Assembly: GCA_963808795.1 (NCBI GenBank)
Contig: CAWEGL010000001.1
Span: 127,381 to 191,380, forward strand
Origin: an uncultured Acidobacteriota bacterium
GTDB lineage: Bacteria > Acidobacteriota > Terriglobia > Terriglobales > Acidobacteriaceae
DNA: 64,000 nt
Direction: 5' to 3'
Below, one piece after another: positions 4,226 through 40,662 of this stretch. Position numbers and translations under genes: made by a program. Within the stretch, counting starts at the first letter, position 1. Each line of letters begins with the position of its first letter. The notes beneath the pieces were generated by a model. The model made no database searches and was not told the origin of the DNA. It saw nothing but the letters and a program-made list of their open reading frames with translations.

Positions 4226-4241
4226 TGTGACGGCGATCACA
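4226..4241. promoter_or_regulatory. CRP-type binding site
   Basis: TGTGA-CGGCGA-TCACA, a perfect consensus. Confidence 0.75.
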
Positions 4242-4413
4242 TGCTTGGAGAGTCCGCGCCAGAAATCGTACTGGATTTGCAATCTCGCGCACTCTCTACA
4301 AAAAATGCCAAATACCGGTCAAGCACCTCCGTGAAACTCGCACACAACCCTGTGTGCTGCGAATGAATCCTCCGCCCGGTCCTAGGCTCTTTCGAGAATC
4401 GACCGAACCATGG

Positions 4414-4533
4414 TTTCCAGAGGCGGGGTAGCTGTTTGAATGGAGTACTTGCAATCGGGTGCGCCTTCGCCCTTCCCGCGAATCCCCAACCTTCTGTGCT
4501 TGCTTTACCATGCAGCTACCCCGCTTCTGGAAA
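4414..4533. repeat. 21-bp inverted repeat with a 78-bp spacer
   Basis: tttccagaggcggggtagctg (4414-4434) and cagctaccccgcttctggaaa (4513-4533), 1 mismatch. Confidence 0.9.
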
Positions 4534-4621
4534 TTTCTCTATTGACCGGCTGACGGACTCCTTGTAAAGATGAGCAACCGCCATTCGTCCCACCACGATC
4601 TCGCCAATGCCGCCAAGGGGG

Positions 4622-5107
4622 TCAGTTCTGTAACTCATGGAAAGCGGCCCGGTCCCAGGCTGGCGCGAATAAAGTCGCAGATAGATCGGTATCGCAATGA
4701 GGCAATGATCGTTTGGCGATGAACGCCTCGCCCAAAAATAGGTGAGCGTTGCCCTTCAAGTCGAGAAAGCCGACGCCGCTCTCCACGCACAGCGCCCGTG
4801 TCTCCGCCAGCAGAGAGGGCGCGATGAAGACAGGTGTCGCGCCTCCAGCAAAATGAGCAGCCTGGTTGCGCAACTTCAACAGAGTCGTACGGACATCCGT
4901 AGCCTGGCCGTCGGCTGCCACCTTACAAACAATCGTTTGGCAGTGACCCCACACGTCGATGTGCGCCATGACGTCGATGGCGTGGTCAACGGCCGGAGAT
5001 GCGCACCTGATTTCGAGCAATTTGATTGCGGAGATCTGTTCCATCAGTGCCTTGAGCGCGTCGGCCGCTCGGGCATTCAAATCTTTCCTTGCTATCGAAG
5101 TGGTCAT
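4622..5107 (-). CDS. Hypothetical protein resembling the N-terminal part of AbiEi-like (type IV TA antitoxin) proteins
   Basis: PVFIAPSL..ETRALC...GVGFLDLKGNAHLFL motif recognised from memory. Start placed at MTTSIARK after a purine-rich stretch. Confidence 0.45.
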   Translation of the reverse strand: MTTSIARKDLNARAADALKALMEQISAIKLLEIRCASPAVDHAIDVMAHIDVWGHCQTIVCKVAADGQATDVRTTLLKLRNQAAHFAGGATPVFIAPSLLAETRALCVESGVGFLDLKGNAHLFLGEAFIAKRSLPHCDTDLSATLFAPAWDRAAFHELQN

Positions 5108-5240
5108 TTCCGGGCTTCTCCCCCGTGCTCTAAGGTTGAAGTTGCTGGCGGTCATGGCGCTTCGTAACCAGCGGGCGAAGAGACATCGAGAACTGCGCGG
5201 CAGGCTTGACCCGTGGGCCGCGGAGCGTAAGAGGATACGG

Positions 5241-5954
5241 TTAAGCAGCAAGGCGTTCGAGTTGCTCGTGCCTGACGATAGTCAGGCACGAGCCGTGAAT
5301 GGTGATCCACTGGTTACGACGGAACTGGTTTAAGGAGCGCGTAACGGTTTCCCGCGATGTTCCGGTCATGTTGGCGATCTCTTCGTGCGTCAGCGCCATG
5401 GTGAAACGGATCTCGGATTTGCCGTCAGCCGCTGCGTGCCCCCATTCAAGCAAGAGACGCGCCAGCCTCCCTGCCGACGAGCCCGGCAGCGCCAGTCGCT
5501 GGGCATCGTGAAATGCAGTGAGGTACTCGGTGGAGAGCATCTGCGCCGCGTGCATGGAGGCGATACCGTGGCGGCCCAAGAACTCGATGAACTCACACTT
5601 GTGCATGATCTTGACTCGGCATGGCTCGATGGTCTCTGCGGTGGCTTCGTGCAAAACATTCTCGAGTATTGCGCTCAGGCCCAGCACCTCCCCGGGGCCG
5701 GCGATCTTCAAGATCATGGTTTTGCTATCGCGTGAGGTGGTAGAGATTTTCACCTGCCCGGAGCAAATCACGAAGACGTTCCGTACCGGGTCGCCCTCGG
5801 AAAACAGCTTGGCTCCGGGAGCCGGGCTCATCATGAATCCGATCTTTTCGTAATCGGTAAGCGTCGCCGCCGTGAAGTTGCAGAAGGTTAGTTGATGGCG
5901 AAACTCACAACTCAAACAGTCTTCCGGTGCGTGATGCAGGTAAAGCGAAGCCAT
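5241..5954 (-). CDS. Crp/Fnr family regulator with an N-terminal Cys cluster
   Basis: CLSC-x8-C at the N-terminus; cNMP-fold GPGEVLG; HTH EEIANMTGTSRETVTR. Confidence 0.92.
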   Translation of the reverse strand: MASLYLHHAPEDCLSCEFRHQLTFCNFTAATLTDYEKIGFMMSPAPGAKLFSEGDPVRNVFVICSGQVKISTTSRDSKTMILKIAGPGEVLGLSAILENVLHEATAETIEPCRVKIMHKCEFIEFLGRHGIASMHAAQMLSTEYLTAFHDAQRLALPGSSAGRLARLLLEWGHAAADGKSEIRFTMALTHEEIANMTGTSRETVTRSLNQFRRNQWITIHGSCLTIVRHEQLERLAA

Positions 5955-38514: not shown

Positions 38515-39161
38515 ACCTCGCGTTTCTCGGCTTCCACCAGGGTGAAATCACCCAGCCGGTTGTTTTCCTCCATAATAATGCTGTAGCCGGTCTCGCCCAG
38601 CATTGCTTTCAGGTTGCTCACAGGGCTTGTGCTTGCCTGTGTGAGCACAAAAGTAACGATGGAGAGCGGAACGCGCACGAGGTTGTGAATCATACGCCGC
38701 AGGAACTTCTGCGGTCTCACTTCGTCCGCCAGAATCAGAAGGCCGCCCGGACGCAGCAGGCTGCGGCACTGAAGCAAAACCAACTTCTGTTCGGGTTCAC
38801 TCAATTCGCTGAACATCAGAACGCTGACGATGGTGTCGAACGATCCAGGCGAAAAGTGGTCAGTCAACTCCACCGCGCCGGCTTCCACCCAGCGCACAGC
38901 CAAGCCGGGCGAAACCCTGCGCCTGGCAACAGCGAGCATCTCAGGTGAGAGATCAACGCCGACGACACGTTGACCGGTCCGCGCAAGTCGCATTGCCATA
39001 TACCCGGTACCGCAACCCAGGTCGAGCACGTCGGGACCACGGGTCAGCTCGGTCATTCGATTGTAGATATTGTTGATGTGGCCCAAAGACAGGAGACGGA
39101 TGCCGAAGTCGTAACGCTCCGGAGCCGACTCCAGCACGCGCATCCAGACATAAGAGCTCAC
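38511..39161 (-). CDS. SAM methyltransferase coupled to the corrinoid protein (CpaM-like, name from memory)
   Basis: VLDLGCGTG; ATGA overlap with the HgcAB-like gene. Confidence 0.85.
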   Translation of the reverse strand: MSSYVWMRVLESAPERYDFGIRLLSLGHINNIYNRMTELTRGPDVLDLGCGTGYMAMRLARTGQRVVGVDLSPEMLAVARRRVSPGLAVRWVEAGAVELTDHFSPGSFDTIVSVLMFSELSEPEQKLVLLQCRSLLRPGGLLILADEVRPQKFLRRMIHNLVRVPLSIVTFVLTQASTSPVSNLKAMLGETGYSIIMEENNRLGDFTLVEAEKREV

Positions 39162-39391
39162 GCTGCCATCTTAATGCCACAGAGGCCGCCCAACGTCCGC
39201 GGAGAACCTTCGCGGACGGATCGCTGGCCAAGTGGAAGGTGTCCGCCACGCGCGTTGGCTCACCCGGACTACTTCCGCACCAACGTCGATCTATTCAAAA
39301 CCGGATGCCGCTGCATGGTCCGCAAAAGCTTCAAGCGAGCCGGGAACAATTTCGGCTGTTTGTCACGGCATTCCGGCGGTAGACTGCCGCT

Positions 39392-39964
39392 ATGGCAAAA
39401 GTTGCGCCTTCTCCAAATGAATTGGAGCACTGCCGCTATGCACTCACGCGATATCTCCGATACTTGGTTCGGGATGCCGCCGAGGCTGACGATCTGGCGC
39501 AAGAAGCCTTGATTCGTGCACATCGGCAGCGCGATACGCTGCGCGGCCTTGCGGCGCTGGAGAGCTGGCTGTACCAGATTGCTACCCATGTGAGCATCGA
39601 CCGGATGCGGCAGCGGGCAAAAACTGCAGCGCGGCAGGTGGACGAACCGGTTGAAGATTTACCGATTGCCGACGTGGCACAACCGTCGCCGATTACCGTG
39701 ATCCAGAAGGAAGAAATGAGCGCGTGTGTTCAACGGTATGTCGCCAAGCTGTCCGACGGTTACAAGGCGGTCCTTCTGTTACACGACGGCGACGGACTCA
39801 CAGCCAGGGAAATCGCGATCCTGCTGCGATTGCCGCTGGCGACGATCAAGATGAGGCTGCACCGCGCTCGCCGGCAACTGCAGGCCACCTTGAACGACGC
39901 ATGCGAGTTCGAACGCGACGAGCGCGGAGTCTTCATTTGTGAGCCGAAACCGGATGAACGTTGA
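39392..39964 (+). CDS. ECF sigma factor with a Cys-containing C-terminal extension
   Basis: ADDLAQEA, WLYQIA, IKMRLHRAR; tail CEFERDERGVFIC. Confidence 0.88.
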   Translation: MAKVAPSPNELEHCRYALTRYLRYLVRDAAEADDLAQEALIRAHRQRDTLRGLAALESWLYQIATHVSIDRMRQRAKTAARQVDEPVEDLPIADVAQPSPITVIQKEEMSACVQRYVAKLSDGYKAVLLLHDGDGLTAREIAILLRLPLATIKMRLHRARRQLQATLNDACEFERDERGVFICEPKPDER

Positions 39965-40250
39965 CCGCTTCGCCGCATCCGCAATCGCCAACGGAAGGCT
40001 TACCTGGCCCAGTTCGCCCCAGTATTCTGCGTCCGGCCGCCAGTGGTTTCTCCATCCGGGCGACCGTATCGGATCCCAGCGCCTCCATGACACACTGTCG
40101 TTTCAGCATGGCGGCAAGGATGCGCAGCGTTTCATCCACATCTTGCCACGAACTCCCTTGTGCCAGTGCCTGCGTCACCATCTTTTCGGTGCATGGCTCG
40201 CAGCCGCCTACAACGACTACGGCGATAGGTATCAGATTCTGAAGATTGCA
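39933..40250 (-). pseudogene. AhpD/CMD-like CxxC protein with a disrupted 5' end
   Basis: Extending ORF 39933..40181 upstream gives NLIPIAVVVVGGCEPCTEKMVTQALAQG..WQDVDETL, bounded by an in-frame TAA at 40253-40251. The nearby ATG (40251) is in another frame. Confidence 0.6.
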
Positions 40251-40622
40251 TTATGCCGGTCCCGGCATAACGGCGGGCCAGCGCACGGTCAACAAAGTCG
40301 ACATCCTTCCTCTGATAAGGACGAGCAGGGTTATCGTCTTTTAGTTCACGAATGAGGCGTCCTCGGTTCTTGCACGCCGATGTGTACGCCCAGATGGCGC
40401 AGGCATGGAGCGATGTCGAGGATGATCTCCCGAAGCGGCCCTAAACACCAGTCTATAAAAGGATGCTGGTTGCGCATGGCGAATGGCGAATGGCGCCTCG
40501 CGACCTGTTGCCCCCTGCGGAATCCTGATTGTGGGCACAAGAATTCTGATTGCCGCGAACAAACTACCAGAAAGTGCAGTCGAGACGCGAGCCGGGACGC
40601 TCCAACCATTCTTTGCTGCTCC

Positions 40623-40662
40623 CGTGACGGCGATCACAGACCGTAGGTTGGCTATATGGCAA
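40623..40662. promoter_or_regulatory. CRP-type box plus a candidate ArsR operator
   Basis: CGTGA-CGGCGA-TCACA (40623-40638); imperfect palindrome TTGGCTATATGGCAA (40648-40662) just before arsR. Confidence 0.65.

Follow-up and report, generated by a model that had tools for sequence, protein, structure and literature searches.

The locus described here raises the question of whether boxes of the type TGTGA-N6-TCACA, scattered over its intergenic regions, are operators of one regulon, and of which protein would bind them. The window, i.e., the whole stretch of DNA analysed, comprises 64,000 nucleotides of contig CAWEGL010000001.1 (positions 127,381 to 191,380 of the forward strand; assembly GCA_963808795.1) of an uncultured bacterium of the family Acidobacteriaceae. 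On its minus strand, at 5241..5954, it encodes a Crp/Fnr-family regulator of 237 amino acids with the Pfam domains cNMP_binding and HTH_Crp_2. A sequence-only reading had proposed that this regulator coordinates itself, a peroxiredoxin (prx)/resistance–nodulation–division (RND) efflux module, a sigma-54-dependent activator (EBP) and a DGC-lipoyl operon. We consider it fairly probable that the boxes are operators of a Crp/Fnr clade that includes the 5241-5954 protein, and that they act as class II activator sites.

When at most one mismatch was allowed, the pattern TGTGA-N6-TCACA was found at seven sites in the window (4226, 6173, 6191, 6948, 10459, 30901 and 40623), as compared with 1.16 expected, and none of 100 shuffles reached seven. 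The six boxes reported previously were thus all recovered by the pattern scan and shuffles. Two had been missed, the one at 6948 and a weak half-site box at 10475, which abuts that at 10459. Every box is intergenic, and the non-coding share of the window is only about 14% by a crude gene map refined with Pfam. The 15-mer GTGACGGCGATCACA occurs, spacer included, in three exact copies at 4227, 6174 and 40624, all on the plus strand, precisely as had been stated; 0 of 100 dinucleotide shuffles of the window gave three matches, even at two mismatches. A weight matrix trained on 77 sites from other genomes only, with none from the window, detected six window sites of at least 10 bits, all of them intergenic, versus 0.45 in shuffles. 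A motif scan against background, which had been suggested as a check, gave one strict box per 10.7 kb in the window, one per 42 kb in 923 kb of related Acidobacteriaceae DNA (the usp promoter excluded) and one per 120-150 kb in about 940 kb of DNA of unrelated phyla. The box density of the window is therefore about four times that of related DNA.

The same motif recurs at orthologous positions in other genomes. Loci fetched from them are labelled here with L-numbers, and they include 80 orthologous crp loci from species-representative genomes. In 66 of the 80, a tandem box pair precedes a conserved operon for Usp (a tandem universal stress protein), a cNMP-domain-only protein and Crp. The pair consists of TGTGAY-N4-RTCACA, which is also the consensus of the 77 foreign sites, followed after 6 nt by GGTGAATGGGGTCACT. 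In a few orthologous loci, crp itself is immediately preceded by a box, a box also stands ahead of a second Usp gene in nine loci, and in the closest relative, L082 (82% identity), boxes are also present before a rubrerythrin/ferritin gene. The targets that recur in related genomes, i.e., two Usp genes, rubrerythrin and phosphoketolase, fit a low-oxygen or redox response. Additionally, the motif co-occurs with a large Acidobacteriaceae Crp/Fnr clade, the one to which the 5241-5954 gene belongs.

In class II promoters of the CRP/FNR type, the site is centred near -41.5, which leaves 21-22 nt from the 16-mer to the -10 hexamer. In each conserved promoter family found here, an xAxxxT hexamer starts 22 or 23 nt past the end of the 16-mer: in 66/66 usp promoters (CA[C/G]ACT), in 15/15 arsR promoters (TG-n-CAAyrT, an extended -10), in 5/5 EBP promoters (TAnnnT), in 6/6 crp-proximal promoters, and at the phosphoketolase (TAGGCT) and rubrerythrin (CATGAT) sites. 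The arsR, EBP, crp and RND sites of the window have a hexamer at the same offset. As this offset is fixed, the box centre would lie at -41.5 or -42.5, i.e., in the geometry of a class II activator. All transcription starts given here are predictions from the box-to-hexamer spacing. No hexamer at class II distance was found at the window sites towards prx or towards the divergent Imm_superinfect gene.

The phosphoketolase site comes from one Terracidiphilus metagenome-assembled genome (MAG), where the box (L073, 11680) and its TAGGCT at class II distance stand before the gene; this hints at fermentative carbon metabolism in the regulon. The boxes before the second tandem-Usp gene (L032, L038-L040, L072, L077, L078, L080 and L081, at about 7700-8600, plus 12061 in L039) have no -10 at class II distance; a conserved GGTGC-N8-CACAT ... 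GGTGGCA is present instead. These promoters appear to have a different architecture, possibly with sigma-54 dependence.

The regulator itself belongs to the CRP/FNR superfamily: PF00027 (2.8e-16) and PF13545 (7.4e-20) both match it above cut-off. More than 4000 proteins match it at E<=1e-20, and its close homologues come from Terracidiphilus and from Acidobacteriaceae MAGs from peat, bog and fen. Its identity is 82% with one protein from a metagenome (P0002) and 73-78% with the main clade. Among proteins clustered at 50% identity, 488 clusters matched the family profile at E<=1e-30 in an exhaustive search, and a profile search of PDB matched it to CRP, GlxR and FNR, with M. tuberculosis CRP and C. 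glutamicum GlxR as the best matches. None of the curated NCBIfam equivalogs (Fnr, CRP, FixK, FnrL, NtcA and others) came near its cut-off, the scores being 46 bits versus 266 for CRP and 55 versus 228 for Fnr.

The recognition helix of CRP has the arrangement R180-E181...R185, and that of FNR reads E-x-x-S-R (E209-S212-R213). The helix of the 5241-5954 protein, S-R-E-T-V-T-R, is of the CRP type and not of the FNR type, and the pattern (S/T)-R-E-T-V-(T/S)-R is near-invariant among 103 full-length family representatives (R201 in 101, E202 in 102 and R206 in 100 of them). The cAMP phosphate is contacted by R82/S83 in E. coli CRP and by an Arg-Thr pair in M. tuberculosis CRP. The corresponding residues are H102-E103 in the window protein and Y/H-E in the 103 representatives. 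As the phosphate-binding Arg-Thr is replaced by His/Tyr-Glu, cAMP was rejected as the effector, and the earlier naming of these sites as CRP boxes does not hold in the cAMP sense, either for the window protein or for its family.

Cys13, Cys16, Cys25, Cys64 and Cys112 of the protein are conserved in 71, 66, 74, 87 and 43 of the 103 representatives, respectively. The first three form an N-terminal pattern C-x2-C-x8-C, and because this pattern and C64 make up four conserved cysteines, we propose an Fe-S cluster or a thiol switch. In E. coli FNR, the [4Fe-4S] cluster is held by C20, C23, C29 and C122. The family aligns with Aliivibrio fischeri FNR in the PDB profile from the Cys-rich N-terminus onward, and in a profile alignment to E. 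coli FNR, the sequence of which was entered by hand, C13 and C16 lie opposite C20 and C23. Judged by these residues, the protein would combine CRP-like DNA reading with no CRP-like cAMP binding and with a cysteine set that is reminiscent of FNR but not identical to it. It is probably a redox sensor rather than a cAMP sensor; as to a redox or Fe-S signal in particular, we regard the case as nearly balanced, leaning slightly to the negative side.

The gene of the regulator appears to be one of its own targets. The promoter-proximal box TGTGACGGCGATCACA (6173..6188) has a predicted centre at -42.5 for a minus-strand start near 6138, and the predicted extended -10, TGcCATGCT (6145..6153, read from 6153 to 6145 on the minus strand), places the hexamer 23 nt past the box end. 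The distal box TGTGATAGGGATCACA (6191..6206), 18 bp from the proximal one and predicted at -60.5, has the top matrix score in the window, 21.1 bits. An identical -10 and tandem boxes at the same 18-bp spacing precede crp in L082. A weak box of 9.4 bits, TGTGACTTAGCTCACT (6948..6963), lies 291 nt upstream of a nucleotidyl-transferase gene at 7247, and its target is uncertain.

Downstream of the regulator gene, the box at 4226..4241, again TGTGACGGCGATCACA, has one -10-like hexamer at class II distance per strand: AATCGT on the plus strand and, in the direction of the PIG-L/LmbE gene (3801-3046), GATCCT (4199-4204). We favour the latter, which would make this deacetylase gene on the minus strand the target, because in L082 a box downstream of crp drives the next co-directional gene; transcription in this direction would need a leader of 390 nt. 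The region of the box gave no Rfam match (at gathering thresholds and also at E<=1) and no conserved relatives among the fetched loci. Between it and the regulator gene lies gene X (4622-5155), which has no Pfam or NCBIfam match and no similarity to the cNMP-domain gene of the canonical operon. A 124-nt element at 4412-4535, located between box 4226 and the 3' end of gene X, folds into a near-perfect stem of 21-24 bp, TTTCCAGAGGCGGGGTAGCTG ... CAGCTACCCCGCTTCTGGAAA, with a minimum free energy of -72 kcal/mol (z = -5.5). It is single-copy in the window, without an Rfam match and without relatives in the fetched loci, and could be a bidirectional terminator, a REP/MITE-like element or part of a Crp-dependent small RNA. 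A long palindrome in L085 (6515-6600) is different from this hairpin.

The box CGTGACGGCGATCACA (40623..40638, predicted centre -41.5) had been assigned to the DGC-lipoyl operon. Its regulatory role there stands; its position needs correction, since it fronts an ArsR/SmtB gene (40692-40985) and not the DGC-lipoyl gene directly. The box centre is 61.5 nt before the ATG of this gene, the start of which, 40692 (MDKRNPF), was set by conservation. The ArsR gene heads a likely target operon (40692..45030, plus strand), the continuity of which we infer from the tight spacing of its genes. It is followed by genes for an MTH895/ArsE-type thioredoxin (40989-41234), a Cys-rich protein of 125 amino acids (41235-41612), a DGC-GcvH/lipoyl-carrier fusion (41772-42734), two DGC proteins (42667-43176 and 43095-43871), an LplA-like lipoate ligase (43868-44620) and a CMD protein (44656-45030); the assignments, that of ArsR included, are by Pfam and NCBIfam. 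Among loci fetched with the DGC-GcvH protein, a box is present at the equivalent place before ArsR genes in at least 13 from Acidobacteriaceae. The same sequence (CGTGACGGCGATCACA) is found in L136, at a protein identity of 64%, and a version with one spacer base changed (CGTGACGTCGATCACA) in the 94%-identical relative L085. Further ArsR paralogues each come with a box, at 62.5-63.5 nt upstream of the ATG, and the Bryobacterales and Solibacteraceae loci have no such box.

A conserved element, CTATATGGCAAyrTGGyCAATA (40652..40676, plus strand), always lies 13 nt past the box, in the window as well as in L085, L110-L113, L116, L119 and L136. It contains the predicted extended -10, TGgCAATGT (40657-40665), with TG at 40657-40658 and the hexamer CAATGT at 40660-40665. 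This strictly conserved element resembles an imperfect inverted repeat of the ArsR/SmtB type and probably serves as the operator for ArsR; its overlap with the -10 and the +1 predicted here suggests dual control, by Crp/Fnr activation and ArsR repression. The window ArsR protein has cysteines at positions 34, 80, 82 and 87. Just before the arsR promoter lies a gene for an extracytoplasmic function (ECF) sigma factor (39392-39964) with an overlapping downstream open reading frame (ORF; 39939-40355); elsewhere, the ORF 17375-18400 joins ECF sigma-70 regions 2 and 4 to a zf-HC2 anti-sigma zinc finger.

The box before the sigma-54 activator gene, TGTGTCACTGATCACA (30901..30916), is likewise predicted at -41.5, with a -10-like TAGCTT at 30938-30943 on the plus strand. 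The gene (30993..32417, plus strand) encodes the Pfam domains Sigma54_activat, AAA_lid_14 and HTH_8, and a box is found 87-100 nt before the start in 6/6 full-length EBP orthologues from metagenomes. Downstream of it, a sigma-54 promoter-like -24/-12 element, TGGCACGCAAGGTGCT (32528..32543, plus strand), lies 76 nt before a gene at 32619, where a plus-strand run begins that encodes an unknown protein of 444 amino acids, Pyr_redox_2, DUF1641, DsrC-like and DsrE-like proteins. Its position makes this element a probable output of the EBP; the sigma-54 pattern as such gave three matches in the window versus 2.4 expected, i.e., not above chance.

Around the EBP gene, a sulfur-trafficking/heterodisulfide-reductase-like set occupies 22787-28326 and 34059-36808. 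It includes two HdrA-like flavo-FeS proteins, an HTH_20 regulator, an FeS/DsrM-like membrane protein, DsrE2-like proteins, a DsrC/TusE-like protein, and Pyr_redox_2 with DUF1641. If the lipoyl-carrier and lipoate-ligase genes at 41772-44620 are counted in, the whole is similar to an sHdr-LbpA-type system. Next to the EBP box lies the ORF 29175-30881, the longest form of which has 568 amino acids and matches malate dehydrogenase only from residue 235; the gene probably starts near 29877, or it has an unrecognised N-terminal extension.

In the peroxiredoxin/RND intergenic region, a strong box, CGTGATGGTGGTCACA (10459-10474), is directly followed by a weak one, AGGGATGGCTGTCACA (10475-10490). With a -10-like TAGCCT at 10513-10518 on the plus strand, the weak box would be at -42.5 and the strong one at -58.5 for the RND efflux operon (10576..16300, plus strand), which encodes an outer-membrane factor, a membrane-fusion protein and an AcrB-type pump (Pfam OEP, HlyD_D23 and ACR_tran). 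By this promoter geometry, the operon is probably a target of the regulator. The geometry fits RND and not prx, and the peroxiredoxin gene is not supported as a target. The nearest relatives of this 1-Cys peroxiredoxin (9596-10333) have 65-80% identity and are not from Acidobacteriaceae; the 80 nearest come from Bryobacteraceae, Planctomycetota, Verrucomicrobiota, Armatimonadota, methanogenic archaea and others, which suggests a horizontally acquired enzyme of an anaerobe type. None of these 80 has a box, and their loci served as a density control (1 per 120 kb). Of the four modules assigned to the regulon previously, the regulator itself, the sigma-54 activator and the DGC-lipoyl operon are thus borne out by conserved sites and fixed spacing and the RND operon is likely by geometry, whereas prx lacks such support.

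The boxes had also been described as belonging to an island with its own regulator. Such an island would be expected to have an integrase or tRNA at its border and a deviant composition, and to be absent from close relatives. The G+C content is even over the window (0.57-0.66), no tRNA was found in it, and there is no integrase among the scanned proteins of its first 55 kb. The 94%-identical relative L085 (MFD02923.bin.1.41) is collinear with the window only from 40499 rightwards; this synteny starts abruptly (at 6727 in L085), some 125 nt ahead of box 40623. On the left side of this point, L085 has a phage-type integrase and hypothetical genes before its contig ends, so that either of the two genomes may bear an insertion. 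The context of the window crp gene is unlike the canonical GH3 ... usp/cNMP-domain/crp ... TldD/PmbA arrangement. Acidobacteriaceae have both the motif and the protein family (over 4000 close homologues) as core features, and in other genomes ArsR and activator genes that are not adjacent to crp have their sites as well. The boxes could also be bound by a second paralogue, its recognition helix being the same. The targets do cluster locally; the evidence falls short of an island with a regulator of its own, and in other genomes the regulon is clearly dispersed. Phage-like genes, with Sipho_Gp157 at 62789-63451, are present only near the 3' end of the window; the region 55934-63999, which has no boxes, contains mostly genes without family matches, with an HTH_17 excisionase-like gene (below cut-off), HTH_23 and Siphovirus Gp157, and is probably a prophage remnant.

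What else could the boxes be? That they are chance palindromes without function would draw on the shortness of the motif and on nothing further; in view of the shuffle statistics, the solely intergenic placement, the conservation at orthologous loci and the negative controls in unrelated phyla, we give this hardly any credence. A Rex-type NADH/NAD+ redox repressor is a more specific candidate. The Rex operator has the consensus TTGTGAA-N4-TTCACAA, i.e., A at position 6 and T at position 11 of the 16-mer, and so has the TGTGA/TCACA half-site core in common with the boxes. The neighbouring genes have a redox flavour, and Rex sites and those of the Crp/Fnr protein HcpR1 can coincide, as was reported previously (PMC5701242). 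Yet all 77 training sites have C or T at position 6 and G or A at position 11, with A and T there at 0%, the boxes lie at the activator position -41.5 with no -35 element, they accompany crp genes and precede them, and no Rex-like domain is present among the window proteins scanned. Rex was rejected as the binder, since the A6/T11 that it requires was never seen in the 77 sites; this explanation is very improbable. A closer competitor is the canonical paralogue from a usp/cNMP-domain/crp operon elsewhere in the chromosome, with the 5241-5954 protein redundant or narrower in its role. Its recognition helix would be practically the same as that of the window protein, the ArsR and EBP boxes are conserved in genomes with the canonical crp, and the MAG DBS1-1.bin77 gave two crp contigs (L027 and L037), so that paralogues may coexist. 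Set against this, the window gene has its own tandem boxes (class II and upstream), conserved in L082, which makes it part of the same circuit, and the density of boxes is about fourfold higher around it than in related DNA. We consider binding by the canonical paralogue unlikely, but a serious alternative.

The identity of the spacers is a separate matter. It had been taken as a hint of promoter duplication, and the identical 15-mers could accordingly be copies made by duplication, insertion or gene conversion rather than independently maintained operators; for example, the boxes at 4226 and 6173, which are 17-nt direct repeats with 20/22 nt in common and bracket crp and gene X, could be the junctions of an inserted 1.95-kb crp-X cassette. 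The probability that three of seven sites have one 6-nt spacer by chance is, by our own estimate, <1e-3, and spacers elsewhere vary freely: those of the usp boxes differ among orthologues (CTCGAA, CCAGAG, CCTTAG, TTTAAA and others), as do those of ArsR boxes, so that the protein makes no demand for the CGGCGA spacer. However, the similarity stops at the box. The flanks of the identical boxes are unrelated beyond 17 nt (4226 versus 6173) or 15 nt (40623), and in a repeat search only the box itself, of 15-22 nt, recurred. Moreover, the crp-proximal box of L082, TGTGACGACGATCACA, is one spacer base different from that of the window in a genome without gene X and without the 4226 copy, and the ArsR box has its identical counterpart in L136 and one that is a single base off in L085; hence no fewer than two of the three copies are of old origin, being conserved between orthologues. 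As nothing beyond the box is similar, promoter duplication or a repeat element was rejected as the origin of the copies, and copying in general seems to us improbable, although the 4226 copy may have arisen by recombination. The spacer identity may reflect selection for one high-affinity variant or a preference of the divergent paralogue encoded here.

Several observations weigh against the boxes being class II activator sites of the clade that includes the 5241-5954 protein. This model does not explain why three boxes have the same 6-nt spacer when spacers vary freely, box 4226 is without a target, and the prx site is without a footprint. The -10 assignments follow the sigma-70 rules of E. 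coli, and the promoters of this phylum are poorly known; in addition, the arsR hexamer sits within the conserved operator-like element, so that its conservation may have another cause. A run search found no RNA runs covering the locus, which only DNA soil metagenomes contain. The window protein, at 73-78% identity to the main clade, differs from it in gene context, and a canonical paralogue elsewhere could bind. As for the signal, C25 is offset by three residues from C29 of FNR in the alignment to the hand-entered sequence, and the fourth ligand, C122, is unmatched in place, with K115 aligned there; an FNR-type [4Fe-4S] cluster is thus not established for the 5241-5954 protein.

With these reservations, the class II operator reading leads to the following model. 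A dimer of the regulator would bind the boxes through its CRP-type recognition helix (R201, E202 and R206), centred at -41.5 or -42.5 on most sites as a class II activator, with an extra upstream box at its own promoter and at that of the RND operon. It would activate its own gene and that of the sigma-54 EBP, which probably fires the 32528 promoter before the DsrC/DsrE-type sulfur-trafficking genes. It would also activate the ArsR gene heading the thioredoxin/DGC/lipoyl-carrier/lipoate-ligase operon, with ArsR probably repressing its own operon from the operator overlapping the -10, and would probably activate the RND efflux operon. The effector would not be cAMP, and an Fe-S cluster or thiol switch may report the oxygen or redox state. 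A broader reading, which we offer as speculation with the balance against it, is that a distinct, phylum-wide subfamily, in which the cysteine set C-x2-C-x8-C...C64 is joined to a DNA-reading head of the CRP type, acts in peat-soil Acidobacteriaceae as the master switch for low oxygen and redox state (or for reactive sulfur). It would stand over a three-tier cascade, from Crp/Fnr through an ArsR-type repressor and a sigma-54 activator to lipoate-dependent sHdr-like and DsrE/DsrC sulfur metabolism, with the invariant variant GTGACGGCGATCAC marking the sites preferred by the divergent paralogue that the window encodes.

Acidobacteria are among the most abundant soil bacteria, and to our knowledge their transcriptional control is almost wholly unstudied; a literature search found no paper describing a Crp/Fnr regulon in them. 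The analysis adds a motif, a promoter architecture and a first list of predicted targets for a widespread, unstudied acidobacterial Crp/Fnr subfamily: its own gene, Usp proteins, rubrerythrin, phosphoketolase, ArsR-led lipoyl-protein operons and a sigma-54 activator. This list ties a probable oxygen/redox sensor to sulfur-trafficking genes in peatland Acidobacteriaceae, and may be of use in reading peat metatranscriptomes and in guiding the genetics of cultured relatives. As a comparative-genomics prediction of a regulon in an understudied phylum, it extends the CRP/FNR paradigm and adds no new principle.

Among known systems, ArsR-type repressors, sHdrR and SoxR, control genes for sHdr and lipoate-binding proteins in Hyphomicrobium (PMC12423496). 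The window is similar to H. denitrificans in having an ArsR/SmtB gene beside genes for a lipoate-binding protein, lipoate ligase and sulfur trafficking (DsrE, DsrC/TusE and HdrA-like). The defining cysteine pair of sHdrR is Cys50/Cys116, to which some of Cys34, Cys80, Cys82 and Cys87 of the window ArsR may or may not correspond. A difference is that the promoter of the window ArsR has an added, predicted Crp/Fnr class II site, not described for sHdrR. The nearest described non-cAMP analogues of the regulator are HcpR1 and HcpR2 of Desulfovibrio desulfuricans. HcpR1 is a Crp/Fnr protein that does not use cAMP, binds a perfect TGTGA-N6-TCACA and autoregulates, and HcpR2 senses via an Fe-S cluster (PMC5701242). 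The targets seen here differ in including no gene for a hybrid cluster protein (hcp), and HcpR1 differs in being a haem protein; no HcpR model in NCBIfam matched the 5241-5954 protein.

With E. coli CRP and actinobacterial CRP/GlxR, the window protein shares the fold, the domain order, the R-E-x-x-x-R helix, the TGTGA-N6-TCACA core with T/C at position 6, and the class II position at -41.5. It differs from CRP in the His/Tyr-Glu at the cAMP phosphate positions of its family, in the extra N-terminal C-x2-C-x8-C segment, and in its predicted targets, which are stress, redox and sulfur genes instead of catabolic operons. The likeness to FNR (E. coli, and A. fischeri, 5E44/5CVR) lies in the Cys-rich N-terminal extension with C13/C16 corresponding to C20/C23, the lack of a cAMP site, the self-activation from class II promoters that is predicted here, and the Usp and rubrerythrin targets typical of low-oxygen regulons. 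However, the boxes start with GTGA and not with TTGA, so that the motif is not TTGAT-N4-ATCAA, the helix is RETVTR and not VETISR, the third cysteine is offset by three residues, and the conserved fourth cysteine of the family is C64, with C122 unmatched. Judged by these features, the system is one of the CRP/FNR superfamily, yet it departs from what defines either subfamily: from cAMP-CRP in the effector site, and from FNR in motif and helix and, it seems, in the fourth ligand.

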